Part shown: positions 8,116-49,995 of the stretch, piece by piece
Numbering within the stretch: the stretch's first letter is position 1
Layout: each line of letters begins with the position of its first letter
Assembly: GCA_015711795.1 (NCBI GenBank)
Contig: JACVJC010000006.1
Location: forward strand, 198 to 64,197
Origin: Candidatus Geothermocultor quzhuomuensis
GTDB taxonomy: Bacteria > Actinomycetota > Aquicultoria > Geothermocultorales > Geothermocultoraceae
Direction of reading: 5' to 3'
DNA length: 64,000 nt
Notes under the pieces: model-generated
Told to the model about the DNA's origin: nothing
Databases searched by the model: none
The model's input: the letters and a program-made list of their open reading frames with translations, nothing else
Position numbers and translations under genes: made by a program

Positions 8116-8120
8116 TTTTT

Positions 8121-8980: not shown

Positions 8981-9063
8981 ATGTCTTAATTTAATGTCCA
9001 CTTTGAGGGGTGCACTCCAAAATTGTAATTAGCAAATAATACAATGGTACTCATCGAATGTTC

Positions 9064-10443: not shown

Positions 10444-10653
10444 ATGGCTCAAGTTACAATTTCTTCTAAATATCAAATAGTGATACCGAAAGAGATAAGA
10501 AAACAATTGCATCTCAAGAGTGGGCAAAAGATGTATGTGTTAGCTAAAGAAGGTGTAATCACTCTGATTCCCGACAAACGCCTTGAGGAATTTCGAGGTT
10601 ACCTTAAGGGAATGAATACTTCGGGCATCCGGGAAGAAAAGGAACGGCTATGA
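10444..10653 (+). CDS. vapB: AbrB/MazE/SpoVT-family antitoxin (VapB-like)
   Basis: MAQVTISSKYQIVIPKEIRKQLHLKSGQ is a typical AbrB fold; overlaps the PIN gene by 4 nt (ATGA); true start ATG 10444. Confidence 0.88.
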   Translation: MAQVTISSKYQIVIPKEIRKQLHLKSGQKMYVLAKEGVITLIPDKRLEEFRGYLKGMNTSGIREEKERL

Positions 10654-11021
10654 TCCTGGTCGACTCATTTGGTTGGATAGAGTTCTTCACCGATGGCCCT
10701 CTCGCAGATAAATATTATAAATATTTGAAAGATGAAAGCAGGGTAATCACACCCACTATTGTGCTCTACGAAGTGTATAAGAAGATCAAACACGAAAGAA
10801 GTGAGGAAGAAGCTCTCATTGCGGTTGCCCAACTTAACAAGACGAAAGTTCTCCCATTAAACGAGTCTATTGCTCTCTTTGCTGCCGATTTGAGCTTAAA
10901 GCATGCTTTACCGATGGCTGATGCAGTGGTGTATGCCACTGCATGTTTAGAAAATGCCGATGTTGTTACAAGCGATTCTCATTTCGAAGGGCTTTCCGGA
11001 GTTGTATTCCTTAAAATTTGA
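10650..11021 (+). CDS. vapC: PIN-domain toxin VapC
   Basis: ILVDSFGWIEFF, TIVLYEV, LPMADAVVYATA, VVTSDSHF: conserved acidic PIN residues. Confidence 0.92.
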   Translation: MILVDSFGWIEFFTDGPLADKYYKYLKDESRVITPTIVLYEVYKKIKHERSEEEALIAVAQLNKTKVLPLNESIALFAADLSLKHALPMADAVVYATACLENADVVTSDSHFEGLSGVVFLKI

Positions 11022-35151: not shown

Positions 35152-35218
35152 AAGTTGTTATTATATCAAATACTCTGAGGCAATTAGGAAGATTTAAAAA
35201 TAATTTGTAAGTTAATAC

Positions 35219-35248
35219 TTGACAAATATGAATATATGTTGATATAAT
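35219..35248 (+). promoter_or_regulatory. sigma70/SigA promoter of the ars island (TTGACA-18-TATAAT, extended TG) overlapping an ArsR-type imperfect palindrome
   Basis: TTGACA 35219-35224, TATAAT 35243-35248; ATATGAATATATGTTGATAT between and over them. Confidence 0.7.
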
Positions 35249-35283
35249 CAAATTGCACCTTAGTGTAGCTGAGGGGGGCAATA

Positions 35284-35625
35284 ATGGTTAAGGTAAAAAT
35301 TCAGATTTTTGATCCGCCAATGTGCTGTCCCACTGGAATGTGTGGTCCAACTATTGATCCCACTTTGATTGAAATCCACGAAGCCATCGGGCAGGTAGAA
35401 AAGGAATATAACGGGAAAGTCAAAGTGACGCGCCACCTTTTTGGGAAAGATGTGCAGCCATTTTTATCTAATAAAAAGGTTTTAAGTCTAATCCGTGAAA
35501 ATGGCCCAAGCACTCTGCCAATTACCACGGTCGATGGTGATATTATTAAGAGTGGCTCTTATCCTTCATATGAAGAATTGAAAAACTTGGTAGAGACACA
35601 GTTAAATACAGGAGGTAGACGATGA
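35284..35625 (+). CDS. arsD: Arsenic metallochaperone ArsD
   Basis: QIFDPPMCCPTGMCGP (CC-x4-C As(III) site), LPITTVDG, GSYP. Confidence 0.9.
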   Translation: MVKVKIQIFDPPMCCPTGMCGPTIDPTLIEIHEAIGQVEKEYNGKVKVTRHLFGKDVQPFLSNKKVLSLIRENGPSTLPITTVDGDIIKSGSYPSYEELKNLVETQLNTGGRR

Positions 35626-35963
35626 AAGAACTTTGTTCGTTCTTCAAAGTTTTGTCCGACGAGACAAGGTGTAAAATTTTTACTCTTCTTCTTTCCCGGG
35701 AGATGTGCGTCTGCGAGATTGTAAGTGAGCTCGGTCTTTCTCAGTCACTCATCTCTCACCATCTGTATCACTTAAAAGCGGCTGGTCTTGTTAAAGACAG
35801 GCGAGAAGGCGTTTGGATCCACTACTCAATTAATCACGAGAAACTCAATGAATATAAGCTGAAATTCTTACAAGGATTGCAGAAGGCTGCTTCAACTCAA
35901 ATCCCCTGTAAATTTGCCTGCTGTGATATGGAGGTGGCGGCCGGTGCAAAACAGGTCAGCTAA
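35622..35963 (+). CDS. arsR: ArsR/SmtB metalloregulator
   Basis: FKVLSDETR, EMCVCEI (CxC site), SQSLISHHL..L..AGLV; additional C-terminal CKFACC. Confidence 0.92.
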   Translation: MKELCSFFKVLSDETRCKIFTLLLSREMCVCEIVSELGLSQSLISHHLYHLKAAGLVKDRREGVWIHYSINHEKLNEYKLKFLQGLQKAASTQIPCKFACCDMEVAAGAKQVS

Positions 35964-36855
35964 GTTCATCTTCTTCTCGGGAAAAGGAGGCGTCGGGAAA
36001 ACCTCAATGGCTTCTGCCACTGCTGTTTACTATGCAGATCAGGGAAATAAGACCCTCATTGTAACAACAGATCCAGCTTCAAACTTGGCAGATGTCTTTG
36101 GGCAGGAGATTGGTCATAAGATTACCAAAATTAGTGGAATAGAAAACCTCTGGGCGATGGAGATAGATGCGGACAAGGCGACAGCGGAATACAAGGAAAA
36201 TGCTCTGGAACCTTTGAGAGAGCTCTTTCCAGAGGAGATGCTCAAAGTTTTCGAGGAGCAACTTAACTCCCCCTGCACCGAGGAGATGGCTGCCTTTGAC
36301 AAGTTTATCGAGTTTATGCATAATCCCGAGTTTGATGTAGTTATTTTTGACACAGCTCCGACCGGTCACACCTTGCGGCTACTGGAACTGCCTGCCGATT
36401 GGAGCAGACATATTGAAGCAAGCAAGGAGGGAAGTGGCCAGACCTGCATGGGGCCTGTGACCATGCTGGAGGAATCCAAGGCAAAGTACGACGAGGCGAT
36501 AAAACTAATGAAAGATCAAAGTCGGACTAGATTTGTTTTTGTCGTTCAACCGGAAGCGACACCGATTGCTGAGACCAAGAGGTCGGCCACAGAACTTGAA
36601 GAAAAGATCGGTATCAGGGGAACCGAACTGATAATCAACGGGATTCTTCCTGAGAATGAGTGCATCGATCCGTTTTTTAAAAAGCGCTACGAGATGCAGA
36701 TGAAATATGTTGAACAAATTAGAAACGAGATTCCACTACCGACGAAGTTAATGTACTTAAGAGAGCGTGATCTTAGAGGAATTGCGATTTTAAGGGAAGT
36801 TGCTCAGGAACTTCATCAAGAGGTAGAAGCTGAGGCGGTGGCGCAAGGTGATTGA
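35944..36855 (+). CDS. arsA: Single-domain arsenite-stimulated ATPase, A1 half
   Basis: GKGGVGKT, TDPASNL, SPCTEEMAAFD, DTAPTGHT, TCMGP; GTG 35944 follows GGAGG. Confidence 0.92.
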   Translation: MQNRSAKFIFFSGKGGVGKTSMASATAVYYADQGNKTLIVTTDPASNLADVFGQEIGHKITKISGIENLWAMEIDADKATAEYKENALEPLRELFPEEMLKVFEEQLNSPCTEEMAAFDKFIEFMHNPEFDVVIFDTAPTGHTLRLLELPADWSRHIEASKEGSGQTCMGPVTMLEESKAKYDEAIKLMKDQSRTRFVFVVQPEATPIAETKRSATELEEKIGIRGTELIINGILPENECIDPFFKKRYEMQMKYVEQIRNEIPLPTKLMYLRERDLRGIAILREVAQELHQEVEAEAVAQGD

Positions 36856-37744
36856 TGTCAAAAGTATGTTCATTCCCGAAAATGGTCAGATTCGTTCAGT
36901 CTTTTTCGCTGGTAAAGGAGGAGTCGGCAAGACGACTATCTCTTGTGTCACGGCGGTCAAGCTGGCTGAAGAAGGCTACAGAACCTTTCTCTTAAGCACC
37001 GACCCGGCATCTCACCTGGGAGAGGTGTTTGAGCAGGAGATTGGCAGCACCCCGACCGAGATAGAAGGAGTGGAGAATCTCTGGGCAGCCCGTATTGATC
37101 AGGAGAAGGCTGTGGTGGAATATAAAGAGCGTATCCTGGGCGATGCCAGAGGAAAGTACACCGAGGATGTCTTAGCAATGATGGAAGAGCAGCTCGATTC
37201 CCCTTGCACCGAGGAGATGGCAGCTTTTGATAAGTTTATTGAGTATGCTTCCTCCTCAGATTATGAAATCATTGTTTTTGATACTGCCCCAACCGGTCAT
37301 ACATTGCGTCTTCTCGAGCTTCCAGTAGACTGGAGCAAGCAACTTGAGTTTCAGGCTGGTGGAACAGTAATTGCAGATGAATTAAACAAACAGGCTCAGA
37401 ATAGATTCAGGCAAGTTATTGAGCGAATGCGCGACCCTGAGAAGACGACTTTTGCCTTCGTGGTCTACCCTGAGCATACCCCCATTATTGAGGCCTGGCG
37501 AGCCGGCGAAGAGCTCAAAGAAATTGGGGTTTCGACAAAATTGGTGGTAGCAAATTTTGTCTTGCCCGAAGAGCGCTGCACGACAGATTTCTTCAAGAAA
37601 CGATATGAGATGCAGCAGGAGCACCTAAAGGAATTAGGTAAGAAGTTTAAGGCCCCAGTTTTGACAATGCCTCTTCTTGATGGCGAGATAGTGGGTCTTT
37701 ACAATCTTAAAAAAGCTGCTCGCATTCTTTTTGACGAGGAGTGA
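36848..37744 (+). CDS. arsA: Single-domain arsenite-stimulated ATPase, A2 half
   Basis: GKGGVGKT, TDPASHL, SPCTEEMAAFD, DTAPTGHT; overlaps the A1 stop. Confidence 0.92.
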   Translation: MIDVKSMFIPENGQIRSVFFAGKGGVGKTTISCVTAVKLAEEGYRTFLLSTDPASHLGEVFEQEIGSTPTEIEGVENLWAARIDQEKAVVEYKERILGDARGKYTEDVLAMMEEQLDSPCTEEMAAFDKFIEYASSSDYEIIVFDTAPTGHTLRLLELPVDWSKQLEFQAGGTVIADELNKQAQNRFRQVIERMRDPEKTTFAFVVYPEHTPIIEAWRAGEELKEIGVSTKLVVANFVLPEERCTTDFFKKRYEMQQEHLKELGKKFKAPVLTMPLLDGEIVGLYNLKKAARILFDEE

Positions 37745-37749
37745 TAGGA

Positions 37750-37908
37750 ATGGATCAGAATATTGTTATTTCTTTTTCACCACAAGATATTATAAGATTG
37801 ACAATGATTGTAGTGGATGAAGACAAGGAGGAAGCACTTCTCTTCTTGAGAGAGCTAGAAAAAAAGGTAAAAGCTGCTCAAGAAAGTCATTGTAAGCCAA
37901 AAATATGA
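37750..37908 (+). CDS. Small hypothetical protein (52 aa), absent from the ORF track
   Basis: MDQNIVISFSPQDIIRLTMIVVDEDKEEALLFLRELEKKVKAAQESHCKPKI*; fills the gap between arsA2 and the next gene; weak AGGA RBS. Confidence 0.6.
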   Translation: MDQNIVISFSPQDIIRLTMIVVDEDKEEALLFLRELEKKVKAAQESHCKPKI

Positions 37909-37932
37909 TAAAGCTGAAAAGGAGAGTTTGTT

Positions 37933-38292
37933 TTGGGAAATAATAAAGAAAAACATGTCGTTCAGATCTTCGGTGTTGAGGCTGGGGCAGGGGGCTGAGG
38001 CCCTGTCTGTGAGCCCGCGGACTGCGGGCCGGCTCAAACTATGGCTGATCAAGCGGCGGCTGTTGAAACCGAGCTAAAGAGAAGCTTTGGCGACCAGATT
38101 GAGGTGCGCTATATCGATATCTTTATGTCTGCTGAAATTAATTCTTACCCTAACGTCATAGCTGCGGTAATGGCTGGCCAGGCTCCTCTTCCCATTACCT
38201 GCATTGACGGACAACCAAAAATAGCTGGGGGAATTTCCGTTCCAATGATTAAAAAGGAACTTGAGTCATTGGGTCTCAAGCCATCTTCTTAA
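37933..38292 (+). CDS. Putative selenoprotein, ArsD-like thioredoxin fold (119 aa, Sec at codon 22)
   Basis: AAGGAG RBS, TTG start at 37933, in-frame TGA at 37996-37998 in GAGG-U-GPVCEPADCGP, frame continuous with ORF 38041-38292; aligns by eye with ArsD. Confidence 0.75.
37999..38035 (+). promoter_or_regulatory. Candidate bacterial SECIS hairpin
   Basis: Stem GCCCGC (38013-38018) / GCGGGC (38024-38029) with G-initiated loop GGACU starting 20 nt after the UGA. Confidence 0.6.
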
Positions 38293-38334
38293 TAAAAAAA
38301 CCATTCCATTTCTGAGAACAGGAGGAGACAGCAA

Positions 38335-38553
38335 ATGCCAGAATACGACTTCAGATGCGGAAATTGCGGGGAAAAGGTAACTATTCGAGCAACCATTAGC
38401 GAAAGGGAAAAAGGCCTTAACTGCCCACATTGTGGTACTAAAGATTTGCACCAGATTTTTAGTGGTATTACCTTTATTGGTTCTTCTACTGGGTCGGATT
38501 TTTCATCTTTCCCACCAGGCTGCATCCCCGGCGGCGGCTGCTGCCCGTCTTGA
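38335..38553 (+). CDS. FmdB-family zinc-ribbon protein
   Basis: MPEYDFRCGNCG...CPHCG; Cys-rich tail GCIPGGGCCPS. Confidence 0.85.
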   Translation: MPEYDFRCGNCGEKVTIRATISEREKGLNCPHCGTKDLHQIFSGITFIGSSTGSDFSSFPPGCIPGGGCCPS

Positions 38554-38631
38554 GGCTCTGTGAAAAGATAAACTAAATCTTGATAGACCAGGTAAGTTTG
38601 GATAATCAATCTTGTAGAAAGAGGTGATTTT

Positions 38632-40581
38632 ATGCATGTAGAAACGGCACGCAGAGAGAAACTTTCCATCGTTGAGAAACTTTTGCCGGTCTGGATTATC
38701 TTAGCCATGGCGGTCGGTATGGGCGTTGGCAAGCTCATCAATGCCTCGAATGTCGAGCTTCTTCCGCCAATTGTGGCTATCATCTCTATTTTTAAAGGCA
38801 CTTTTCAGTTTGATTTGGGTCACAGCATCTCACTGGGCATCCCCATTGGCCTCTTTTTAATGATCTACCCGGCTATGGTGAAGATTCATATGGAAGATGC
38901 TAAGAAGGCGTTGACCAGTGGCCGGGCGGCTGGTGTTGTTGTCTTCTTTAACTATGCTATTAATCCCTTTCTGCTGTGGCTTTTTGGCTGGATTTTTCTA
39001 CGCAATCATCCTGATCTCTGGACTGGACTAATTCTTTTGGGTGTGGCACCGTGTATCGCTATGGTCTTAGTTTGGACCGACCTTGCCAAGGGAAACAACG
39101 CTATGGCTTTAACCCTGATGGCCTGGAACTCCTTGATTCAGATGATCACCACTCCCCTATTTATCTTTTTGATTATTGGTTCTCGGGTTAAGCTTGACAT
39201 AAGTCTGATTGCCGAAAGTGTCATCCTCTTTCTTGGCTTGCCTCTCTTGGTCGGCGTGCTAACCCGAGGGAGCGCCATCAAGCGAAAGGGAGAGGAATGG
39301 TTCGAGAAGAGATTTGTGCCGGTCATAAACAATATTCAGCTCATCGCTCTGCTTTTTACATTGGTCATTATGTTTTCACTTAAGGGCGATGTAATAATAG
39401 CCAAGCCGGAACTCATCTATCTAATGGCAGTTCCTTTGATCTTGTTTTTCGTCACCCTCTTTATGCTGACCTTCTTTGTGGCAAGGCAGGTCAAGCTCAA
39501 TTATGAGGATTCGGTAGCTGTTGCTTTCAACTCTACAGGCAGAAACTTTGAATTATCAATTGCGATTGCTCTGACTGCGTTTGTGGCAAGGCCGATGGTC
39601 GGTGTCTCAACGGTGGTAGGTCCCTTGATAGAGGTTCCAGTGATGCTGGGTCTGGTCTATTTTGCCAAGCGGGTGAGTACCAGCTTGTTTGCTGTTAGAA
39701 AGGAGCCCGAAGCGATGTTTGAGAGAGTGCTTTTTGCTACAGATTTCTCTGATTGTTCCTGGGCAGCTTTTAAGTGCCTTGAGGAGCTCAAAGTGGCCAA
39801 AGAGGTAATCCTAACACACATAGTCGACACAAACATTGCCAGTGAGGGCAAAACAGAATTCTTACTTGAAAGCGCCAGAACAGATATGGACGAGAAAAGA
39901 GAACTCCTTAAGAAACAGGGTTTTTCAGTCAAAACTGTTGTGAGGCTTGGAGTGGTGACCAGAGAAATTCTGAAAGTGGCGGAGGAAGAGAGGGCATCTC
40001 TAATCATGGTTGGCGCCCGAGGAGCCGGCCTTTTGAGAGAACTTGTTTTAGGTAGTACTCCTTCAGAGCTCATCCGCTATGGGCGCTTCCCTGTTCTAAT
40101 CCTTCGTCATCAGGTTGTAGAGCGGATGGGTGAAAGAAAATGTGAGGGCGTTTGTGAGAATTTCTTAAAGAAGGTTGTAGTGCCGACAGATTTTTCCCAG
40201 TATGCAAATCGGGTTCTTGGGCATATAGTCGAGAGAAAATCCGAGTTGCCGGTAGAAGAAGTTGTCCTGGTCAATGTGGTTGATAGAGGTGAAGACGCGC
40301 AGGCAATTGAGGCTCATAAAGAAGAGGCAAAAGCTGAGCTGGCAGCCTTGGCTGAAAAACTCGAGAAAGAAGGTTTCAAAACCAGCGTTCATGTCCATGT
40401 AGGAAGTCCTTCAAAAGAAATTATTAGAGTGGCCGAAGAGGAAGATGTCTCTCTTATTATGATAGGAGCAAAAGGAAAGGGGCTATGGAAGGAAATCCTT
40501 TTGGGGAGCACGTCAGAGCAGGTAGCACGGCATGCAGACCGTCCAGTACTTGTATTTAAGCCATTAGAAAGTTTTGCTTAA
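38632..40581 (+). CDS. acr3: Acr3 arsenite efflux permease fused to two universal stress protein (USP) domains
   Basis: LMIYPAM, GVAPCIAMV, GRNFELSIA, VGPLIEVPV in about residues 1-350; then two USP repeats VLFATDFS...LGSTPSEL and VVVPTDFS...LGSTSEQV. Confidence 0.9.
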   Translation: MHVETARREKLSIVEKLLPVWIILAMAVGMGVGKLINASNVELLPPIVAIISIFKGTFQFDLGHSISLGIPIGLFLMIYPAMVKIHMEDAKKALTSGRAAGVVVFFNYAINPFLLWLFGWIFLRNHPDLWTGLILLGVAPCIAMVLVWTDLAKGNNAMALTLMAWNSLIQMITTPLFIFLIIGSRVKLDISLIAESVILFLGLPLLVGVLTRGSAIKRKGEEWFEKRFVPVINNIQLIALLFTLVIMFSLKGDVIIAKPELIYLMAVPLILFFVTLFMLTFFVARQVKLNYEDSVAVAFNSTGRNFELSIAIALTAFVARPMVGVSTVVGPLIEVPVMLGLVYFAKRVSTSLFAVRKEPEAMFERVLFATDFSDCSWAAFKCLEELKVAKEVILTHIVDTNIASEGKTEFLLESARTDMDEKRELLKKQGFSVKTVVRLGVVTREILKVAEEERASLIMVGARGAGLLRELVLGSTPSELIRYGRFPVLILRHQVVERMGERKCEGVCENFLKKVVVPTDFSQYANRVLGHIVERKSELPVEEVVLVNVVDRGEDAQAIEAHKEEAKAELAALAEKLEKEGFKTSVHVHVGSPSKEIIRVAEEEDVSLIMIGAKGKGLWKEILLGSTSEQVARHADRPVLVFKPLESFA

Positions 40582-40590
40582 GAGGATCCA

Positions 40591-41115
40591 ATGCTCAAAA
40601 AGCAATATGACCGTGTGGAAGAACGAGAAAAAGTATTCGAATTAATGGATCTAAACACCAAGCATGTTCTTGATCTTGGCACTTGTGGCTGCGATTGTAT
40701 GACGATGATTTTGGCCAAAAATGGTTTTAGAGTGACACCAGTCGATAACTCTGAGGAGAAGTTAGCTGAAGCTAAGGAATTTGCACAGCAGGAAGGACTT
40801 TCCGAAAGCATAGATTTTCGGCATGAAGACGCAGCTAATCTTTCTTTTGCCGATGGTTCGTTTGAAGCTGTTGTGGCTTATAATCTTTTGCATCATTGTG
40901 ACGATGTTGACGGAGTCGTTTCAGAGATGTTTCGAGTTTGCAAACCAGACGGAAAAATAATCATTGCTGAACTTAATGCTGATGGGAGAAGGGAGGCAGA
41001 ACATCGGAGGGACCGGCGATTTCTCAAGAAAGTCCAGAAATTGATAGAAAAACAGGGCCGAGAATTTGAAGTATTTGATCTTGATTTCACTCGAGTATGG
41101 ATCGTCAGGAGGTGA
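40591..41115 (+). CDS. Small class I SAM-dependent methyltransferase with Cys-rich motif I
   Basis: VLDLGTCGCDC, VDNS, EDAANLSFADGSFEAV, LHH, FRVCKPDG. Confidence 0.75.
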   Translation: MLKKQYDRVEEREKVFELMDLNTKHVLDLGTCGCDCMTMILAKNGFRVTPVDNSEEKLAEAKEFAQQEGLSESIDFRHEDAANLSFADGSFEAVVAYNLLHHCDDVDGVVSEMFRVCKPDGKIIIAELNADGRREAEHRRDRRFLKKVQKLIEKQGREFEVFDLDFTRVWIVRR

Positions 41116-41119
41116 GATT

Positions 41120-41362
41120 GTGGTAACCGAAAATGAGATAAGAGAAGCGTTGCGAGAGGTGATCGATCCTGAAGTAGGAATTAATCTGGTTGATATGAAT
41201 TTAATAAAGGACATCAAGGTTGATGGCGAGAGGGTAAAAGTCAAGATGACTTTAACTATCCCGACATGCCCGTTGTCAAGTTACCTAACAAATCAAGTTA
41301 AGGAAAAAGTTGAGAGCCTCCCAGGAGTGAAGAGCGCCGAAGTCGAGCTAGTGGATTTGTGA
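41120..41362 (+). CDS. DUF59 / SufT (MIP18) Fe-S cluster assembly protein
   Basis: L.EVIDPEVGINLVDM.LI, MTLTIPTCPL; GTG 41120 follows GGAGG. Confidence 0.88.
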   Translation: MVTENEIREALREVIDPEVGINLVDMNLIKDIKVDGERVKVKMTLTIPTCPLSSYLTNQVKEKVESLPGVKSAEVELVDL

Positions 41363-41372
41363 GGAGGTTAGA

Positions 41373-41603
41373 ATGTGTTTGGGCATCCCAGCGAAAGTAA
41401 TAGAAATTAATGGGTATATGGCAGAGGTGGAAATCGGCGGCACGCGCCGGGAGGCCAGTCTCCAACTGGTACCAGATGCCAAGGTTGGAGATTTTGTGCT
41501 TATCCATACTGGCTATGCAATTCAGAAGATCGATGAAAAAGAAGCTGAAGAAACCCTTGAGCTCCTAAAACAACTGGGCGAAAGCAATGGCAGCGGGGAG
41601 TAA
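41373..41603 (+). CDS. hypC: HypC/HupF hydrogenase maturation chaperone
   Basis: MCLGIPAKV, VGDFVLIHTGYAIQKIDE.EA.ETL. Confidence 0.93.
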   Translation: MCLGIPAKVIEINGYMAEVEIGGTRREASLQLVPDAKVGDFVLIHTGYAIQKIDEKEAEETLELLKQLGESNGSGE

Positions 41604-42600
41604 GGGGATAATACCAAAGCTTGCCACAATTCTAGGCAGGTATTTAATTCTCTGGGTTTTCTTCTCCATGGCCTTAGGCACCTTGGTTGGTTATTCTTTA
41701 CCCAGGGTTTCCCAAAGGCTTGAGCCAATTGTTCCTGCTTTATTATTTATGATGATCTTTCCGGGAATGACCAAGTTAGAGTTAGAACATCTTTTTGAAG
41801 TGGTAAAGGATTATAAAAAGATAGCAGTTTCCTTTGTCACAACGTTTATTATCACCCCCCTCATAGTCGGTCTTTTTGCCTATATTTTCTTGCGGAACTA
41901 TCCGGCTTTTGCCGTTGGTTTTATTCTTCTCGGAATTGCGCCTTGCATCGGGATGGTTTTGGCCTGGATCAATCTGGCGGGCGGAGATAATGCGCTGGCA
42001 GCTGTTCTTGTTTCTGTCAATTCTACCCTCCAGTTCTTTACCATCCCTTTCTGGGTCTATGTGTTAGCTCATGTCTATGTCAAAGTTCCTGTTTTGTTAG
42101 TTGTGCGCAGCGTGGCTTTATTCGTTCTTTTACCAATGATGGCTGGTCTTCTTACCCGTCGCTATTTTCTGGTGAAGCTTGAGACTGAAAGGCACGAGCG
42201 AGTGACTACACTGCTTTCGATCATTGAAAAGCTGGCTATTCTGTTTGCAGTTGTGGTGATTCTTGCTCTGCAGGGCAGAACACTAATTGCTAAACCATGG
42301 ATATTTCTTCTAATGGCATTACCTCTGCTTATTTATTATTATTTTGTGTATTTTGTTGGTTTGGGAGTGAGCAGGCTTTTTAGATTCGACTATCCTACCT
42401 CTGTGGCTATCGCATTCAACGCCAACAGCACAAACTTCGAAATTGCCATCGCTATAGCTTTCGTCAGCTTTTCAAGCGCCACCGCTTTAGCCACCGTGGT
42501 CGGTCCAATTCTCGAACTACCGATCCTGGTTAGTTTGATCCATCTAAGTCAGCGACTGCGACCAGCCTGGGAGAGGAGGCTGAAGGATAGCATGCTATAG
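41587..42600 (+). CDS. acr3: Second Acr3-family arsenite permease
   Basis: MMIFPGM, GIAPCIGMV, NFEIAIAIA, VGPILELP. Confidence 0.82.
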   Translation: MAAGSKGIIPKLATILGRYLILWVFFSMALGTLVGYSLPRVSQRLEPIVPALLFMMIFPGMTKLELEHLFEVVKDYKKIAVSFVTTFIITPLIVGLFAYIFLRNYPAFAVGFILLGIAPCIGMVLAWINLAGGDNALAAVLVSVNSTLQFFTIPFWVYVLAHVYVKVPVLLVVRSVALFVLLPMMAGLLTRRYFLVKLETERHERVTTLLSIIEKLAILFAVVVILALQGRTLIAKPWIFLLMALPLLIYYYFVYFVGLGVSRLFRFDYPTSVAIAFNANSTNFEIAIAIAFVSFSSATALATVVGPILELPILVSLIHLSQRLRPAWERRLKDSML

Positions 42601-42639
42601 TTACATTGAGAATAATTTCTCAATGTTAAGGAGTTTCGG

Positions 42640-43371
42640 GTGCTTGAGGTTAAAGATTTAACTGTTGAGGTTGACAGAAAGACTATCCTACACAACGTGA
42701 ATCTGGCTATCGACGCTGGAGAAACTCATGCTCTGCTTGGCCCGAACGGCAGCGGAAAGACGACTCTTCTTATGGCCATTATGGGAATGCCCCGTTATCG
42801 TATTAAAAAGGGTCAGGTCCTTTTTCAAGGCAAAGACATCACCAAACTTTCCATTGATGAACGAGCCCGTTTAGGGATAGGACTGGCTTTTCAGAGACCG
42901 CCAGCAGTCAGAGGGGTTAAGACTCGTCAGATTGTTGAGCTATGTCTGGGAGAAAAAAACGCAAAAAAGGTGGAAGAGCTGGCACGAAAGCTCAATCTTG
43001 CTGCGATGCTTGAGCGAGACGTCAATCAAGGTTTCTCAGGTGGAGAAATAAAACGTTCGGAGATGCTTCAGCTCCTTGCCCAGAACCCGTCCTTTGCCAT
43101 GTTTGATGAGCCGGAATCCGGTGTCGATCTGGACAATATTGCCGTGGTTGGCGAAGCGATTAACGAGATTTTGCAGAAAGAGCGGATACGTGAGAAAAAG
43201 AAGGCTGGGCTAATAGTAACCCACACCGGACACATTCTTGATTACGTGAACGCTGACAGAGGGCATGTTCTGATGGAAGGAACAATTGTCTGCGAGGGAA
43301 ATCCGCGGGATCTTTTCGCTGATATTCGAGCTCACGGCTATGAGGAGTGTGTCAAATGTCGAAGGTGCTAA
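42640..43371 (+). CDS. sufC: Fe-S assembly ABC ATPase SufC (minimal SmsC-like)
   Basis: GPNGSGKT, RDVNQGFSGGEIKRSE, FDEPESGVD, VTHTGHILDY. Confidence 0.9.
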   Translation: MLEVKDLTVEVDRKTILHNVNLAIDAGETHALLGPNGSGKTTLLMAIMGMPRYRIKKGQVLFQGKDITKLSIDERARLGIGLAFQRPPAVRGVKTRQIVELCLGEKNAKKVEELARKLNLAAMLERDVNQGFSGGEIKRSEMLQLLAQNPSFAMFDEPESGVDLDNIAVVGEAINEILQKERIREKKKAGLIVTHTGHILDYVNADRGHVLMEGTIVCEGNPRDLFADIRAHGYEECVKCRRC

Positions 43372-44618
43372 ATAAAACCCTGGCTAAAAATAAAATAGAA
43401 TGGCGCAGGAAAGCGGAGGCTGTGAAGAGCAAGCCTGCCACCTTCGGTCCGGATATAGACCTCTCCAAATTTGCTACCCCTACTGAGAAGGAGAAGGTTG
43501 AATCACTTGAATCCCTTTCCAAGCAGGCTAAAGAGGCGGCTCTTTACGTCGGGATCGATGCTGATGAATCCTTTAGAGCTGGCAGCTACTTTCAAATAGA
43601 CCACTCAGTTATTTACGAGCGTGTTCAGCAGGCCTATCAGGGGCAATTGGAGATTATGTCAACTTCTGAGGCCCTTGAGAGATATGATTGGGTGGCGGAC
43701 TTGTGGTGGCAGGCAGTTCACGTTGATCAGGACAAGTACACTGCTCTGGCTGAACTCAAGCATACTCACGGCTACTTTATTCGGGTGTTTAAAGGCCAAA
43801 AGATTGAGCGGCCCATTCAGGCCTGTCTTTTTCTGGCAGAGAACAATATCAGCCAGAATGTCCACAATTTAATTGTCATTGAAGACGATGCCGAGGCGCA
43901 AATTATTACTGGCTGCACCCTTCACCCGCGGGTTGAAGAAGGACTGCACGTGGGAATCAGTGAGTTCTTCCTGGGTAAAAATGCTTCTCTGATGTTCACT
44001 ATGATCCACAACTGGGCCGAGAATTTCGATGTTCGTCCGCGAACCGGCGCCGTCTTAGAAGACAACGCCACCTTTGTCTCAAACTACATTCTGCTCCGCC
44101 CGGTCAAATCCATCCAGATGTTTCCGGCTGCTTTTCTTAAGGGTAAAGATTCGCGGGCTCGCTTTAATACCATTCTCTATGGAATGAAGGACTCTTATAT
44201 TGATGTTGGTTCAAAAGCTGTCTTAAGCAACAAGGAGACAAAAGCAGAAGCAATCGCTCGGGCAGTGGCATGCGACCAGTCGCAGATCTACGCCAGAGGT
44301 CAGCTCATCGGCCAGGTCAACGAGAGCCGGGCCCATCTCGATTGCCGCGGCATTCTCTTTTCAAGCGAAGCCCAAATTCGCGCCATCCCTGAGCTTTTTG
44401 CCGAAAAAGCCCCGTTGAGTGAACTCTCCCATGAGGCAGCTATCAGCCCTATTGCCGAAGAGGAAGTCGAGTATCTTATGGCCAGGGGGCTATCCAAGGA
44501 AGAAGCAGTCTCCACAATTACCCGTGGTTTCTTAGATATCGATATACCCGGCCTTCCTCCGATCCTTAAAGGCTATATCCAGCGAGTCCTGGATGCTGCC
44601 ACCAAGGAAGCTCTTTAA
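43356..44618 (+). CDS. sufB: SufB/SufD-family Fe-S scaffold (SmsB-like)
   Basis: HVGISEF, HLDCRG, AIPEL, ELSHEAAI..I..EE..YLMARG..EEA...I.RGF. Confidence 0.85.
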   Translation: MSKVLNKTLAKNKIEWRRKAEAVKSKPATFGPDIDLSKFATPTEKEKVESLESLSKQAKEAALYVGIDADESFRAGSYFQIDHSVIYERVQQAYQGQLEIMSTSEALERYDWVADLWWQAVHVDQDKYTALAELKHTHGYFIRVFKGQKIERPIQACLFLAENNISQNVHNLIVIEDDAEAQIITGCTLHPRVEEGLHVGISEFFLGKNASLMFTMIHNWAENFDVRPRTGAVLEDNATFVSNYILLRPVKSIQMFPAAFLKGKDSRARFNTILYGMKDSYIDVGSKAVLSNKETKAEAIARAVACDQSQIYARGQLIGQVNESRAHLDCRGILFSSEAQIRAIPELFAEKAPLSELSHEAAISPIAEEEVEYLMARGLSKEEAVSTITRGFLDIDIPGLPPILKGYIQRVLDAATKEAL

Positions 44619-44642
44619 TCAACAGCGAACTTGCTCAAGGTC

Positions 44643-44837
44643 TTAATGAGGTCTTAGCTCTTTTAGTTTAATCATTACTTCTTTTCTATTTTTGGGTGGC
44701 TCATTTGACAAATCAATAACGATAATTTCACCTGCGTCTACTACTGATTTGACTATGAGTTGAGTTTGCCTTTCAGTAGCTCGTTTCTTTTCAAGACTTG
44801 AGAGGTGTTCTTTGAGAAATTTTGGAAAGAGCTCTTC
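44643..44837 (-). pseudogene. Start-less 64-codon open frame at the island boundary, possible gene remnant
   Basis: EELFPKFLKEHLSSLEKKRATERQTQLIVKSVVDAGEIIVIDLSNEPPKNRKEVMIKLKELRPH* reads as protein-like, with no start codon. Confidence 0.3.
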
Positions 44838-45012
44838 TTATTTTAGCTATTACTTTCCTTTAAGCACATTGAAGTGATTATAGGATAAACCCCTTTTTAG
44901 CTGAGTAAGAAATTAATTATTAATAAGCTTTTATGTTGGCTAGTAAATTAAGAAGATTAGCAAAAAATTAGGTTAAATGGAGAAAAATTCGGCTTTATTT
45001 AGCTTCATTTTG

Positions 45013-45173: not shown

Positions 45174-47720
45174 ATGGTTATTCTTCACTTAAGAAAGGCT
45201 AAGTATTATTTGAAAAAGCTGCTGGCTTTAACGCTGGTTATTTTTCTCAACTTGAGTTTTGTCAGAGTGGCAGCAAAACCAATGACCTTAACCACAATTA
45301 CCATTGATGGCAATTTTTCTGACTGGGCGGCTGTTAAGAGTGATCCTGACAATCTTTTGGCTGATACCGTTGGTGATAACGACCCGGATTCGAACTCGCA
45401 ACAAAATCCTAATTGGACATCTGACCGCGATTTAACTCATTTTGCTTTTACTTGGGACAATACTTACCTTTATTTTTATTTCAGAGTTTCCGTTTTTCAG
45501 GCAAGACAAACTAGCTTTTTGGTTTACATCGATAAGGATTATAGTAATACTTTGACCAACTCCGATTATCTTATTGATTATCAGTTCAATGGGAGTTCAT
45601 TCCAGAATGTTGGCTCAGGTCTTTATTATTACAGCGCTATTAATCCATCGGGAGACCAAGTCACAGGAGATGGTGAATGTGAGCCTGGAGCAAGAGGCGC
45701 TGAAATTTTAAAGCCTTTATCTTCTGGCGATGGAGCTGGTGGTGGCGAGGGAAATCTGGAGAAAGAGACAAGGATTGCTTGGTCAGCTCTAGGCCTTCCT
45801 CCAGGGACACCCTTGCGGTTTCATATCTCAACTGCTCTAAATTCGTCTCAACTTCCAAATCAAGTTGTTGACAACGCTGGTCCCAAATCAACTTTATATG
45901 CTGGTGTTTCCGTTGAGCCTAATCGCTCTGCTTCGGCGCCAAAAGGAACAGTAGTTACATATACTCATACTGTTCAAAACACTGGCAACTCGACTGATAC
46001 TATTAACCTTTCGGCTACTTCTAGCAAGGGCTGGCAAGTTGGGATTTACGATGCTTCTGGCGATACCACTATTTCCTCTGTTACTTTAGCCCCTAATGAG
46101 AGCACGGTTATAACGGTTAAAGTAACTATTCCATCTAATGCGCAAAATGGAGAATCTGATGTTACAACTGTTCGAGGTACCTCAACCGTTGATTCAAGTA
46201 AAAGTGATACGGCAACAGATACAACGACTGTGGGCTCCATTACTATAACGCCTGATAATAGTGGCTCGATGACAACTGGAACAGCTATTTCCTATTACCA
46301 CACAGTGGCTAACAATACTAGTGCTACCGAGACAGTTCAGCTTTCCGCTACTTCATCTCAGGGCTGGGATGTTGTTTTTAAAGACGCCTCAGGAAGTACC
46401 ACAATTACCTCTGTTGTTATCGGACCAAACTCTTCAGTTGGTATTATTGCTCAAATTTTTGTTCCCTCAGGGGCTTCAATAGGCGACCAGGATGTCACTA
46501 CTGTCCGTGCAAAGTCAGAAAACGACCCATCTAATCAAGATGAAGCTAAAGACATAACAACAGTTAAGAAAAGAGTTTTAATTGACCCTGATAATGAAGG
46601 AGCAACTGGAGCAGGGACAACTATTTCATATCAACATACCATAACTAACAGCTGGAATACAACTGACACCATTAATTTGACTTATACAAACAGTCATAAC
46701 TGGACTGTTAAGATTTATGATTCAGGGGGAATTAACGAGATTTCTTCAGTCACTCTCGGACCAAATGGTGAATCGACTGACATAATTGTTCGAGTTAGCG
46801 TCCCTATTGAAGTCCCGATAGGGACTGTTAACTCTACGACTATTGCAGCAATCTCCGCATCTAATCCTAACTATTTTGATATAGCTGTTGACCTGACCCG
46901 AGTCCAGCAGCTCATTACTTACAAGGATGCGGCTCGTACCCAAGTGTGTACTTTCTTTCGGTTAAAGAATGGGTCGAAAGTCTATGCGCGAGCTACAAAC
47001 CTTATAAGAAACCAAGTTTACAAATTCCGATGGATTGACGCAAGTGGTAACGATGTAAGGTTGAGTGGGGAAATGCAACCAAATGCCGATGGCATCCTTG
47101 ATGACGATTACACAATGAGTGGAACCGAGACGGTTGGAAACTGGACATTGGTTTTATACAGAAAATCGGGAAACAACTTTATTGAGGTTACTAGAACAAA
47201 CTTTATTGTTACTTATGATGCTCAAATTATCAGTCTAATGGCGACTGATGCCCCCAACCTTAACCAGGATATTTTTGTCGACAGCACGGTCACAAATAAC
47301 TGTGAGCAAACCATTACTAATTCAATTATTAATTATGTCATTTGGTGGGATAGCAATGGTAATGAGGAATTTGATGCAGGTGATACTTATATAGGCTCTG
47401 ATGGAAATCCTTATACTTGGGATGGAACAAGCACCGTTTCTACCCATGAAACAACGGGAGTCAATGTACCAACAGGTGGAACTTGGAGCGACCCGGGTTG
47501 GACTATTTCAAATTCGAACTTTCCCTATCAGGGAACTTATAAGATTACTGCTACCTGGAAAACTCAGTCAGGGCTTCTTATTGATGAGAAAACAACAAGC
47601 TTCTTTTCTATACCGACCCTTGGCTATCCTTTACTTTTTGCTCTAATTGGCATGGGCTCTTATCTCCTTTATCGAAAAAGAGAAGAGGTAGACTTCTTAT
47701 TTAAAAGGGTGGTGTCATGA
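45174..47720 (+). CDS. Secreted S/T-rich surface protein: TIDGNFSDW N-domain, three Ig-like repeats, IPTL-CTERM-type anchor
   Basis: Signal peptide; about 110-aa repeats at 45903, 46233 and 46566; C-terminus SIPTLGYPLLFALIGMGSYLLYRKRE. Confidence 0.8.
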   Translation: MVILHLRKAKYYLKKLLALTLVIFLNLSFVRVAAKPMTLTTITIDGNFSDWAAVKSDPDNLLADTVGDNDPDSNSQQNPNWTSDRDLTHFAFTWDNTYLYFYFRVSVFQARQTSFLVYIDKDYSNTLTNSDYLIDYQFNGSSFQNVGSGLYYYSAINPSGDQVTGDGECEPGARGAEILKPLSSGDGAGGGEGNLEKETRIAWSALGLPPGTPLRFHISTALNSSQLPNQVVDNAGPKSTLYAGVSVEPNRSASAPKGTVVTYTHTVQNTGNSTDTINLSATSSKGWQVGIYDASGDTTISSVTLAPNESTVITVKVTIPSNAQNGESDVTTVRGTSTVDSSKSDTATDTTTVGSITITPDNSGSMTTGTAISYYHTVANNTSATETVQLSATSSQGWDVVFKDASGSTTITSVVIGPNSSVGIIAQIFVPSGASIGDQDVTTVRAKSENDPSNQDEAKDITTVKKRVLIDPDNEGATGAGTTISYQHTITNSWNTTDTINLTYTNSHNWTVKIYDSGGINEISSVTLGPNGESTDIIVRVSVPIEVPIGTVNSTTIAAISASNPNYFDIAVDLTRVQQLITYKDAARTQVCTFFRLKNGSKVYARATNLIRNQVYKFRWIDASGNDVRLSGEMQPNADGILDDDYTMSGTETVGNWTLVLYRKSGNNFIEVTRTNFIVTYDAQIISLMATDAPNLNQDIFVDSTVTNNCEQTITNSIINYVIWWDSNGNEEFDAGDTYIGSDGNPYTWDGTSTVSTHETTGVNVPTGGTWSDPGWTISNSNFPYQGTYKITATWKTQSGLLIDEKTTSFFSIPTLGYPLLFALIGMGSYLLYRKREEVDFLFKRVVS
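45903..46904 (+). repeat. Three tandem 110-111 aa Ig-like domain repeats
   Basis: Shared pattern P.....G....Y.HT..N.....TI.L....S.GW.V...D..G...I.SV.L.PN.S..I.V...P......D.TTV. Confidence 0.85.
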
Positions 47721-48304
47721 ACTGGCAACTTCTGTTATCGTTTGCTATTTTTTATACTGTTATTACCTTTACACTGTGGAAGAAGCGGCTTTGGCTTCTT
47801 TATTACACCGAAGCTGTTTTTGGGATGACTTTATTCCTCGTCTTCTTCTGCCGAGATTTAGGGCTGGAAAAAGCTTTAGAAAGATCAGAGATCTTCTATG
47901 CCCATTATTTTACTTCAATTTTAAAAATCCCCACTCAAGTCGTGAGTTTTAACTCAATTATCCATGCTGAGCGCTACGGATGGTCTATTCTTTCAATTGG
48001 TCTGGAGTGTTCTGCTCTTTTAGAAATGGCTGTTTTTTTTGGTTTGGTTATTTTCTACCCCGGCTTCAACTGGCACCAAAAGGGGATTTACTTACCAATA
48101 GGTATTTTAGGAACCTATATTATTAACTTAATAAGAGTTATGGTTATTGTTGGTATGGTCTTTTTTCTGGGTAAAAGCTATGTCTTTATTGCCCACGCAA
48201 TAATTGGAAGATTCCTTTTTTTTACCTTGATTGTTTACCTTTACTGGTTGCTCATAACTAAACCTTCGCTTAAAAAAATCAGAGCGGAGGTGGAGGCAAG
48301 ATGA
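47717..48304 (+). CDS. Exosortase/archaeosortase-family transpeptidase (XrtG-like)
   Basis: Multi-TM; Cys-Arg-His triad LECSALLE / NLIRV / AHAIIGR. Confidence 0.85.
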   Translation: MNWQLLLSFAIFYTVITFTLWKKRLWLLYYTEAVFGMTLFLVFFCRDLGLEKALERSEIFYAHYFTSILKIPTQVVSFNSIIHAERYGWSILSIGLECSALLEMAVFFGLVIFYPGFNWHQKGIYLPIGILGTYIINLIRVMVIVGMVFFLGKSYVFIAHAIIGRFLFFTLIVYLYWLLITKPSLKKIRAEVEAR

Positions 48305-49995
48305 TGGAAGGACTTTGGGCTTTCTTAATCTTTTGGAGTGTTTGGATTCTCATCCCGATTCTGGTTGATGGGGTAGATTCTCTTTATAGAATTATTTTAG
48401 TCTTAGCTAAAGGACGAAAGAGGGAAGAATTTAAAGTTTCTGAAGAAGACTTGCCCAATGTTTCAGTGATAATTCCGGCACGCAATGAGGCAAAGGTGAT
48501 TGACCGCTGCCTTAATTCTTTGAAGATTCAAGATTATCCTCATGATAAGCTCGAAGTGATTGTAGTTGATGATGGGAGCACTGATGGAACTTCGAGTATT
48601 GTTAATGGGCATATTAACGGGAATGATAGGAACAACAAAAATGGCTACATCAATGGCAATGGCGTTAGGATTAATGGCAAGTTTATTCCGATTGGCGATT
48701 TTGGTGGTGTTATAAAGTTACTTGTTAAGAAAGGGGAAGGAAAAGCAGCAGCTTTAAATGCTGGAATAAGTTTAGCTCACGGAGAAATTATAATTAATAT
48801 CGATAGCGATGTTGTGCTTGTGCCTAATGCGATTAGAAAGATGGCAGAAGCTTTTTTGAAAGATAAAACTTTAGGGGCGGCAACTGGCAACATTGAAATT
48901 AATTGGGAAATCATTGAAGAGCGTGACCGGCATGGAAATTTGGTACTTGATAGAAACGGCGAGATTAAACTTAAGAAACTTACTTCAATGGAGATGTTTT
49001 TAGCTAAATGCCAGTTCTTGGAGTATCTAAATGCTTTTAGATTAGGCAGGCAAGCTCAAGACATTACTAAAAGTATGTTCACTTTAGCAGGAGCTTTTTC
49101 TGCTTTTCGCCGGTATGTTCTCCTTAAGTCTTCACTTTACCAAGCAAAGACTGTTTCAGAGGATGCTGATTTAACCTTAGATATTCACCGCCAAAAAGTA
49201 CGAATTGGTTATGTTGCTGAAGCAAAGGCTTACCTTGAACCAGTAACTGACTGGGATAAACTTTATGCTCAAAGGATTAGGTGGGACCGAGGCAAGATGG
49301 AAGTTTGTGGCCTTCATGGGGATATAGTTGGTAACTTGAAATTTGGCAACCTTGGCTGGCTGGGCCTTCCTAAAATGCTTCTTATCGATCACACCATGGC
49401 TTTTCCTAGGCTTATTTGGACATTTCTTTTACCCCTCTTTTTCCTCTTTGGTTATTCTCCTATAGTAATCTTTTATTCTTTGGTGGCTATGTATCTTTTC
49501 TACATGACTATTGATTTTTTAACCACGGCTTTCGCTTATTATTTAGTTGATAATGATACTAAAAAAGTTATTGGATCTTCGTTTTTTTATTGCTTCTGGT
49601 TACCTCTTTACCGGTTTATCCTTTTTTATTTCCGAGTATCTGGCTATCTTGTTGTCTTTAAAGATCCTCCAACCTGGAGCGTTTCTGGACCCATTAACGG
49701 TTTTCGAAATGGTCTTAATAATTATAAGAGGAGAATGGGCGAGACAACTGCTTTCTTCCTAGCAACTTTAATGGTTGTTTTTTCCCTTTTGGCTGAGGGG
49801 GTAAGGAAAAGTCCCTTTGTTGTTTGGGACAAACTTAAAGGGTCATTTGTAATGTTTATGGCAATTATGGTTTTCTTAATGGATTCAAAATTGGCTGAAA
49901 GCTATAGGAGAAAAGTTCATGTTAACTTGACGGTGCTAAAAAGAAGATTAGCCCAAGCAACTGTCTTTTTCATCAGCTTTTGGGGAGGGGTGTAA
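48301..49995 (+). CDS. Membrane GT2 glycosyltransferase of the exosortase-G-associated type
   Basis: FWSVWILIP, IIPARNE, VVDDGSTD, GKAAALN, IDSD, FTLAGAFSAFRR, SEDADLT, QRIRW; Asn-Gly-rich insert and long C-terminal extension. Confidence 0.82.
   Translation: MMEGLWAFLIFWSVWILIPILVDGVDSLYRIILVLAKGRKREEFKVSEEDLPNVSVIIPARNEAKVIDRCLNSLKIQDYPHDKLEVIVVDDGSTDGTSSIVNGHINGNDRNNKNGYINGNGVRINGKFIPIGDFGGVIKLLVKKGEGKAAALNAGISLAHGEIIINIDSDVVLVPNAIRKMAEAFLKDKTLGAATGNIEINWEIIEERDRHGNLVLDRNGEIKLKKLTSMEMFLAKCQFLEYLNAFRLGRQAQDITKSMFTLAGAFSAFRRYVLLKSSLYQAKTVSEDADLTLDIHRQKVRIGYVAEAKAYLEPVTDWDKLYAQRIRWDRGKMEVCGLHGDIVGNLKFGNLGWLGLPKMLLIDHTMAFPRLIWTFLLPLFFLFGYSPIVIFYSLVAMYLFYMTIDFLTTAFAYYLVDNDTKKVIGSSFFYCFWLPLYRFILFYFRVSGYLVVFKDPPTWSVSGPINGFRNGLNNYKRRMGETTAFFLATLMVVFSLLAEGVRKSPFVVWDKLKGSFVMFMAIMVFLMDSKLAESYRRKVHVNLTVLKRRLAQATVFFISFWGGV

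Follow-up and report, generated by a model that had tools for sequence, protein, structure and literature searches.

A predicted selenoprotein gene within a probable mosaic arsenic-resistance island of Candidatus Geothermocultor quzhuomuensis

Does a tightly packed run of genes for arsenic efflux, a predicted selenoprotein and iron-sulfur (Fe-S) cluster assembly act as one system, or has it been put together from parts? The question is raised by 14 genes at positions 35284-44618 of a stretch of 64,000 nucleotides (nt), hereafter the window, from contig JACVJC010000006.1 of Candidatus Geothermocultor quzhuomuensis. An initial annotation, made from the sequence alone, took these genes for one horizontally acquired As(III)-stress module behind an ArsR-type promoter, which would combine ATP-driven efflux, selenol/thiol chaperoning and metallocluster repair. 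In this study, we favour the view that some 9.6 kb (35218 to ~44850) were acquired horizontally and form a mosaic of at least three separable units, and put the probability of this reading at roughly 0.6. It is carried by the gene content, a shift in composition, a conserved TGA codon with a Cys counterpart, the recurrence of the first unit elsewhere, the separability of the second and third, and two promoter/operator motifs. The first unit (35218-40581) would be an As(III)-inducible efflux operon; the second (40591-42600), which comprises the genes for a methyltransferase, DUF59, HypC and another, divergent Acr3, is probably transcribed by read-through from the first; and the third (42593-44618) would be a generic Fe-S scaffold, SufC/SufB, resembling the SMS or minimal SUF type. 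The biochemical roles given here are predicted ones. As a whole, the composite is not a conserved system; what is new in it is the selenoprotein.

The 14 genes all lie on the forward strand, and their coordinates, strand and families, the latter named from the list of open reading frames (ORFs) by hidden Markov model scans against Pfam and NCBIfam, agree with the co-directional run first described, intergenic spacing ranging from -25 to +78 nt. For two proteins of the window, look-ups of the exact sequence gave no match. Profiles of base composition bore out the claim that the block is richer in G/C: GC is 0.44-0.48 inside vs ~0.37 outside, and GC at third codon positions (GC3) is 0.445 +/- 0.067 in the 14 cluster genes vs 0.296 +/- 0.035 in 37 backbone genes (Mann-Whitney p = 1e-6). 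The metagenome-assembled genomes (MAGs) closest to the island genes bear the label Actinomycetota, and the backbone of the window has a GC of 37%. Since the block is compositionally foreign and its relatives sit on contigs with a GC of 43-52%, horizontal acquisition is plausible. Nucleotide homology (blastn) to two related contigs, L085 and L088 (L001–L095 are labels of compared loci or contigs, P-numbers those of proteins), opens exactly at the -35 box of the ars promoter, P_ars, at 35218/35219. At the other end, a truncated HepT-like toxin remnant (~44640-44850, reverse strand) shares 78% nt identity with intact HepT genes located 3' of sufB in L091 and of acr3b in L093; both of these loci have an intact HepT/MNT toxin pair downstream, only the HepT fragment being left in the window, and the remnant is the predicted right edge of the acquired block. 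Flanking direct repeats longer than 12-15 nt were not found at the island, and neither an integrase nor a tRNA gene adjoins it. The backbone has ordinary chromosomal content: one flank carries nuo/mrp-type subunits, HtrA, ArgRS, lysA-like, hom, thrC, RF1, PrmC, TsaC, RpiB and GlyA, the other flank an XrtG exosortase system. One might argue that the GC shift stems from chimeric metagenome assembly rather than from a genomic island, as the contig (80,870 bp) appears to be of metagenome type and the window flanks were found joined to the block in no relative. However, a chimera would need two junctions, low-GC backbone of the same strand bias lies to either side, and the left junction is a promoter edge while the right one lies inside a decayed toxin gene, as is typical of biological insertion and decay; we regard this explanation as hardly credible.

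The Fe-S genes at the end of the run have a promoter and operator of their own (42593-42626), in which an extended -10 element, TGCTATAGT, is followed by the palindrome ACATTGAGAA-TAAT-TTCTCAATGT immediately before the ribosome-binding site of sufC. This palindrome (42603-42626, ACATTGAGAATAATTTCTCAATGT) is a perfect 10+10 repeat of 24 bp, unique in the window with 0 matches expected by chance, and is likely to be the sufC operator for a predicted repressor. It is found again in L093/L094, and TGCTATAGT also stands upstream of sufC in L001 and L004; no further palindrome site was detected in the window (up to 3 mismatches) or in loci besides L093/L094, and the palindrome is absent at P_ars. 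Because of this putatively repressor-controlled promoter, unit 3 would be at least partly independent of arsenic regulation.

The gene behind this promoter, sufC (42640-43371), encodes a sufC/smsC-type ABC ATPase (TIGR01978, 220.3 bits vs a cutoff of 212.8) with CxxCxxC at its C-terminus (EECVKCRRC); in SmsC, the C-terminal Cys cluster holds a [4Fe-4S] centre (PMC12192291). Its neighbour (43347-44618) encodes an SmsB-like scaffold partner of the SufB/D family (PF01458, 124 bits; TIGR01980, 172 bits, below cutoff) with 7290 homologues; against the SmsB model NF052511 it scores 186.8 bits, below the cutoff of 650, this being an 'exception'-type model that may be narrowly trained. No sufD, sufS or sufE was found near the window pair or in the called gene tables of L001-L003, L091 and L092. 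Because of the Cys-bearing C-terminus of SufC and the lack of these three genes nearby, we read sufCB, on sequence grounds, as an SMS-like minimal two-gene Fe-S system. It shares with SMS/minimal SUF systems (PMC12192291, PMC12442378) the sufC-sufB pair without sufD/sufS/sufE and the C-terminal CxxC-type cluster of SufC, features typical of anaerobes; unlike them, it belongs to a bacterial clade under the SmsB cutoff (187 vs 650) and sits at the end of an ars-containing island. An SMS-like sufCB with a dedicated palindromic operator may interest work on the regulation of minimal Fe-S systems in bacteria.

In a census of sufCB neighbourhoods (80 loci from species-representative genomes, tblastn), sufC and sufB were paired in every locus except one cut at a contig end, and about 73 of the 80 had no ars-related gene nearby. 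HypC was beside sufCB in none of these loci, and DUF59 was present at a single one, L033, ~5 kb downstream. Close relatives of the right-hand half of the block share 82-88% nt identity with it, among them L093 (83%). In L093/L094, DUF59-HypC-acr3b is kept and sufCB has been deleted, leaving a 47-amino-acid (aa) remnant that joins the first six sufC codons to the final 39 codons of sufB. The window sufCB appears to be an accessory copy, or at least one that is dispensable in one close relative.

Unit 1 recurs in other genomes together with the selenoprotein gene. An arrangement of the arsD-arsR-arsA1-arsA2-(orf55)-selenoprotein gene-(fmdB)-acr3 type was identified, in the same order, in five further distinct metagenomic contigs or MAGs. 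L084 has arsD-arsR-arsA1-arsA2, a homologue of the selenoprotein gene and fmdB; L085/L086 (L085 being an Actinomycetota MAG) have arsD-arsR-arsA1-arsA2, the selenoprotein gene and acr3; in L087 the same four genes and the selenoprotein gene are followed by fmdB, acr3, two universal stress protein (USP) domains and an arsC of the low-molecular-weight phosphatase (LMWP) type; L088/L089 run arsD-arsR-arsA1-arsA2-orf55, selenoprotein gene, acr3; and L095 holds arsA2, orf55, the selenoprotein gene and acr3. The invariant neighbour of the selenoprotein gene is arsA2, and every contig that extends far enough also has arsD. The end of the module is visible in three of the five contigs, after fmdB in L084, after acr3 in L085 and after acr3-USP-arsC in L087, while L088 and L095 stop at acr3. 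None of the methyltransferase, DUF59, HypC, acr3b and sufCB genes occurs in the recovered parts of these five.

These data bear on the proposal that the whole 14-gene run is a single As(III)-stress operon, with ArsR co-regulating efflux, chaperoning by selenols and thiols, and Fe-S/metallocluster repair (DUF59, HypC, SufCB). As(III) damages Fe-S proteins, and a single operon would also be consistent with the tight co-directional packing, with the uniform GC3, with the failure to find a convincing terminator within the 14-gene run, and with an acr3b-sufCB adjacency that is common to the relatives at 82-88% nt identity. Several further observations weigh against separable units. In L092, sufC begins only 7 nt after acr3b and has no promoter in this gap, hence the two genes must be co-transcribed there. 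Both arsR and acr3 adjoin sufCB in L019 and L041, arsR alone does so in L036 and L061, and an ArsR-family gene, a thioredoxin-like gene with an in-frame TGA, CcdA and FmdB precede sufCB in L001/L004/L005, the FmdB ribbon being common to ars modules and sufCB loci. In addition, transcription from P_ars probably runs on into units 2 and 3. Because ArsR-family genes, and twice acr3, adjoin sufCB in a few unrelated genomes and FmdB is shared, some functional connection between arsenic and sufCB is conceivable, though we think it improbable that a real one exists. Against a single operon stand the separate promoter/operator at sufC, the loss of sufCB from L093/L094, the near absence of HypC and DUF59 from the 80 sufCB loci, and the five other ars/selenoprotein contigs, three of which end, and two of which are cut at acr3, without any unit 2 or 3 gene. 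One integrated As/Se/Fe-S repair module under a single promoter, the central claim of the initial annotation, therefore looks unlikely. If the mosaic of at least three units is correct, the link between arsenic and Fe-S genes would be mostly an accident of assembly, which calls for caution in deducing function from one closely packed set of genes.

The gene that travels with arsA2 in unit 1, referred to as a 'secD-like' gene (37933-38292), would encode a selenocysteine (Sec) protein of 119 aa with a thioredoxin fold. It opens with TTG behind an AAGGAG ribosome-binding site and contains an in-frame UGA at 37996-37998, within a loop that reads GG-U-GPV-C-EPAD-C-GP, i.e. U-x3-C-x4-C. Only eight database proteins match the TGA-interrupted protein. 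Gene callers annotate the products as proteins of 77-84 aa, and in the window the frame of the annotated 83-aa protein extends upstream past the TGA to the TTG start. TGA occupies the same codon in five distinct sequences (the window, L085/86, L087, L088/89 and L095), the other Sec forms being ~70-85% identical to the window protein, whereas L084 has TGT (Cys) at this codon, its loop reading GASG-C-GPTCGPAGCGP vs GAGG-U-GPVCEPADCGP in the window. The 21 codons before the TGA are kept at the protein level across five lineages. A Shine-Dalgarno sequence precedes the upstream TTG/GTG start in every homologue, the internal ATG lacks one, and the internal Met is absent in L088. A genetic code in which UGA is a sense codon (code 4 or 25) was rejected because TGA is a normal stop in the window, where it terminates 17 of the 51 listed genes (10 of 37 in the backbone and 7 of 14 in the cluster).

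Alternatively, the TGA might be a true stop, the product being an 83-aa C-terminal fragment or the gene a pseudogene, and no selenium would be involved. Such a reading agrees with the short proteins annotated by gene callers and with the foreign origin of the block. It also agrees with the lack of Sec machinery: selA, selB, selD and tRNA-Sec were not found within the 64-kb window, and Rfam and ARAGORN detected no RNA genes there, hence no tRNA-Sec and no known selenocysteine insertion sequence (SECIS) model. A scan of the backbone for further TGA-split ORFs returned no convincing second selenoprotein. A SECIS-like hairpin, GCCCGC-GGACU-GCGGGC (38013-38029), does follow the UGA by 14 nt, with its CCCGC/GCGGG stem present in all five Sec forms and G at the first two loop positions; it is, however, statistically unexceptional (z = -0.88), lacks covariation and is retained in the Cys form of L084, and we count it as compatible evidence only. 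The true-stop reading is nevertheless contradicted by the protein-level conservation of 21 upstream codons behind a Shine-Dalgarno sequence, by the missing internal Met in L088 and the Cys codon in L084, and by full-length Cys-loop relatives of 105-131 aa, which makes it quite improbable. We conclude that the TGA gene is very probably a genuine selenoprotein gene in its native lineage, and Sec may be inserted in this host too.

The name 'Sec-ArsD-like' given to this gene at the outset is thus very probably apt in its first half; the likeness to ArsD is distant. The AlphaFold (AF2) model of the Cys form, P0121, has a thioredoxin fold with a predicted local distance difference test (pLDDT) score of 73, the Cys/Sec loop itself falling below 50. 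Thioredoxins are the top Foldseek matches, the ArsD structures 3mwh, 3kgk and 3ktb stand at ranks 10-20, and the highest TM-score, 0.60, belongs to the DUF1462 protein 1xg8. In Pfam, P0121 scores 19.6 bits against DUF1462 (PF07315; cutoff 25) and 12.3 against ArsD (PF06953; cutoff 27); the window protein itself had no match to PF06953 and none in NCBIfam. BLASTP between the Sec protein and the ArsD of the window gave E = 8e-5, with the C..CGP loop and LPITxxDG aligned, and places the U/C/C loop, a low-confidence part of the model (pLDDT <50), on the metal-binding Cys residues of ArsD.

Compared with ArsD (PF06953; 3MWH, 3KGK), the Sec protein shares the thioredoxin fold, a loop after the first beta-strand that would hold three chalcogen ligands, the 'LPIT-x-(V/I)DG' strand and a gene adjoining arsA; it differs in its sub-threshold score, in a predicted Sec ligand, in the spacing U-x3-C-x4-C instead of CC-x4-C, and in belonging to a separate family of ~100 clusters. 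The DUF1462/YuzD-like family (PF07315; 1XG8) provides the best TM-score and the best Pfam match, although below cutoff, and DUF1462 proteins are not known to be linked to ars operons or selenocysteine. Sec in arsenic-handling proteins of anaerobes is exemplified by the NCBI-modelled ArsM_DUF2284_UU and ArsM_AhpD_UU, but these two models describe ArsM fusion enzymes, for which the window methyltransferase scores ~45 bits vs cutoffs of 510-575, and the Sec protein is not a member. An exhaustive profile search of 1.84 billion proteins for the wider family yielded 104 representatives (P0249-P0352), whose full-length members (105-131 aa) have a 'VxxFG' strand followed by a Cys- and Gly-rich loop; ten of these, when checked, belonged to no Pfam family. 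About 40 of the 104 are shorter than 90 aa and start right after the loop, like the Sec forms, and may also be miscalled selenoproteins. In the published literature we found no description of a Sec-containing ArsD-like protein, an ArsD selenoprotein or an acr3-sufB operon. The Sec protein is thus the novel element of the region, in a family without a Pfam or NCBIfam model.

What might this protein do? Its fixed place downstream of arsA2 links it to the pump, and its U-x3-C-x4-C loop would sit where ArsD has the Cys triad. From ligand geometry and gene neighbourhood, the Sec protein could serve as a second, selenol-based metalloid-binding or exchange protein, which would either feed the ArsA/Acr3 pump as a chaperone or keep the thiols of the pump free. 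Taken furthest, and we put this forward tentatively, the UGA gene would be the first known member of a new class of selenoproteins in arsenic operons, within a wider unannotated Cys-loop thioredoxin-fold family: an ArsD-analogous chaperone with one selenolate and two thiolates as ligands of As(III)/Sb(III), which it would deliver to split ArsA1/ArsA2-Acr3. Sec would then serve as a ligand in metalloid trafficking and not as a redox catalyst, the first such case. The main rival to a chaperone is a thioredoxin-type redox role, and the two are equally defensible because the Sec protein does not reach the Pfam cutoff for ArsD and its model resembles ordinary thioredoxins as closely as it resembles ArsD. 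In its specific form, this rival holds that the protein is a thioredoxin-like oxidoreductase that supplies reductant to an arsenate reductase, or itself reduces As(V) or disulfides and so compensates for the missing arsC. Thioredoxins head the Foldseek list, known selenoproteins are typically redox enzymes (PMC1794560), thioredoxin-like genes in ars operons are reported in PMC2963123, and the L087 operon contains an LMWP-type ArsC. On the other hand, U-x3-C-x4-C lies in a long Gly-rich loop, albeit one of low pLDDT, and not in the helix-N-terminal CxxC typical of thioredoxins; no arsC lies beside the module in the window, L084, L085, L088 or L095 (the module end being visible only in the window, L084 and L085); and the constant arsA2, the arsD found wherever contigs reach and the BLASTP alignment onto ArsD Cys residues point to the pump. 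As a specific proposal, the oxidoreductase seems doubtful.

Should the Sec protein prove a real pump component, it would add a new gene to the ars repertoire and show selenium put to direct use in the handling of arsenic, which is rare, with a bearing on As-Se antagonism in anoxic sediments and aquifers. For annotation, the consequence is that every database copy of the gene now appears miscalled as a hypothetical protein of 77-84 aa.

A different TGA-containing gene was seen near sufCB. In L001 (Actinomycetes MAG JAHEXW010000004.1), a membrane-anchored thioredoxin-like gene at 7809-8249 (+) has an in-frame TGA and a T-U-P-T-C active site, and is followed by a CcdA-like gene, FmdB and sufCB, the whole set standing behind an ArsR-family regulator. 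This gene would appear to encode another selenoprotein, distinct from the first and linked to sufCB.

The rest of unit 1 is of a known kind, because a split ArsA working with Acr3 has been demonstrated experimentally in Alkaliphilus metalliredigens (Fu et al. 2010, as cited in PMC2963123). Like the A. metalliredigens ars1 type, the window has two half-size arsA genes beside acr3, ArsD and ArsR, ATP-driven As(III) extrusion as the predicted function, and no ArsB; unlike it, the window has a selenoprotein gene between arsA2 and acr3, an optional orf55, a Cys-tailed FmdB and a USP-fused Acr3, and lacks arsC. The early remark that the architecture is not a described system thus holds for the Sec gene and the composite, and not for split arsA with acr3.

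An ArsR-type promoter had been placed in front of the run, and P_ars (35219-35248) indeed matches the sigma-70 consensus at 12 of 12 positions (TTGACA, 18 nt, TG-n-TATAAT) before arsD. Its spacer contains an imperfect inverted repeat of the ATATGAATA-n-TATTGATAT type, seen by eye and by conservation, while an automated inverted-repeat search at P_ars detected none; the repeat is presumed to be the ArsR operator, and promoter and spacer are kept in L085 and L088. The first gene, arsD (35284-35625), encodes an As(III) metallochaperone (PF06953, 100.5 bits; NF033727, 103 bits vs a cutoff of 90) with the triad Cys14-Cys15...Cys20 within MCCPTGMCGP. It is followed by arsR (35622-35963), for an ArsR/SmtB repressor (PF01022; NF033788, 98.8 bits) with the R773-type CVC motif (REMCVCEIV) and a C-terminal C-x3-CC, both kept in L084, L085, L087 and L088. 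The half-size ATPase ArsA1 (35944-36855, start uncertain, the ORF opening at 35914; PF02374, 269 bits) aligns to positions 8-299, the N-terminal half, of NF041417, a model of 617 positions, and ArsA2 (36848-37744; PF02374, 263 bits) to positions 331-612, its C-terminal half. Both halves have the P-loop, GKGGVGKT in ArsA1, and DTAPTGHT, and ArsA1 has Cys121/Cys178. Acr3 (38632-40581) is a permease fused to two USP domains (TIGR00832, 283.9 bits vs a cutoff of 282.8; PF00582 in two stretches), the Acr3 portion, residues ~1-360, retaining the GVAPC Cys and the NFE Glu. With an ArsR bearing an As(III)-binding Cys motif, two nucleotide-binding ArsA halves and a permease with its essential Cys and Glu, the families and motifs sustain the earlier prediction of ATP-driven As(III) efflux by one coherent unit, preceded by an ArsR-type promoter/operator. 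In operation, ArsR would repress P_ars through the spacer repeat until As(III) binding to its CVC motif releases repression, making the unit As(III)-inducible, and ArsD would pass As(III) to a heterodimeric ArsA1/ArsA2 ATPase that energises Acr3.

The initial annotation was also right that an arsenate reductase is missing: tblastn of the 64-kb window with two LMWP-type ArsC and one R773-type ArsC found none (best E = 0.17), and the cluster genes had no ArsC family match in Pfam or NCBIfam.

Three elements of unit 1 appear to behave as optional cassettes, because the homology to L085 breaks at orf55 and at fmdB and ends at 39724. The small conserved orf55 (37741-37908), first given as 52 aa, is 55 aa long; it matches no Pfam or NCBIfam family, shares 55% identity with the correspondingly placed ORFs of L088/L089, has a clearly similar counterpart in L095, and is absent in L084, L085 and L087. 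The FmdB-family zinc ribbon (38335-38553; TIGR02605, 51.5 bits) ends in a Cys-bearing tail, PPGCIPGGGCCPS, which recurs in the 80-83% identical copies of L084 and L087; the copies directly upstream of sufC in L001, L004 and L005 are 56-60% identical. For the USP pair, homology to the stand-alone acr3 of L085 (91% at the aa level) stops at the end of the Acr3 membrane domain, and an Acr3-USP fusion suggests nucleotide- or stress-dependent gating of the permease. The pair is in frame with acr3 in the window, forms a separate gene after acr3 in L087 and is absent in L085.

Unit 2 begins with a short, predicted class I S-adenosylmethionine (SAM) methyltransferase of 174 aa (40591-41115; PF08241, 80.5 bits), for which no relatives were recovered. 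Called Cys-rich at first, it has five Cys, three of them within the SAM-binding motif I, DLGTCGCDC, which replaces the glycine-rich motif. As a candidate ArsM it was rejected: NF008823 gave 43.9 bits vs a cutoff of 263, all ArsM-type NCBIfam models were far below cutoff, and it is a generic Methyltransf_11 protein only. The next gene (41120-41362) encodes a DUF59/SufT-like Fe-S assembly domain protein (PF01883, 85.2 bits) with a TxxxCP motif; its likely start is a GTG after an AGGAGG site, and it is 98% identical in L093. A HypC/HupF-family chaperone (41373-41603; PF01455, 105.3 bits; TIGR00074, 90.1 bits) with N-terminal MCLGIP is 87% identical in L093/L094. The acr3 named after hypC, acr3b (41587-42600), does encode an ACR3 paralogue retaining the GIAPC Cys and the NFE Glu, but a highly divergent one (TIGR00832, 219 bits, below the cutoff of 282.8); it has two close relatives only (92% and 87%), the next best being 37% identical, and a metagenome scan recovered a single distant locus at 40% identity. 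The DUF59-HypC-Acr3b set was seen in very close relatives only.

Three further features of the window lie outside the island. A decayed IS3-type transposase, broken into several short ORFs, is located ~26 kb upstream at 7821-8981 (+), with HTH_Tnp_1 at 7821-8012 and the integrase core at 8523-8789. At 10372-11021 (+) there is a VapBC-like pair, in which a MazE/AbrB-type antitoxin (93 aa) overlaps a PIN-domain toxin (123 aa). Directly downstream of the island, 45174-49995 (+) encodes a secreted repeat protein of 848 aa that has an anchor-like segment at its C-terminus; after it come an XrtG-like exosortase and the glycosyltransferase associated with the exosortase.

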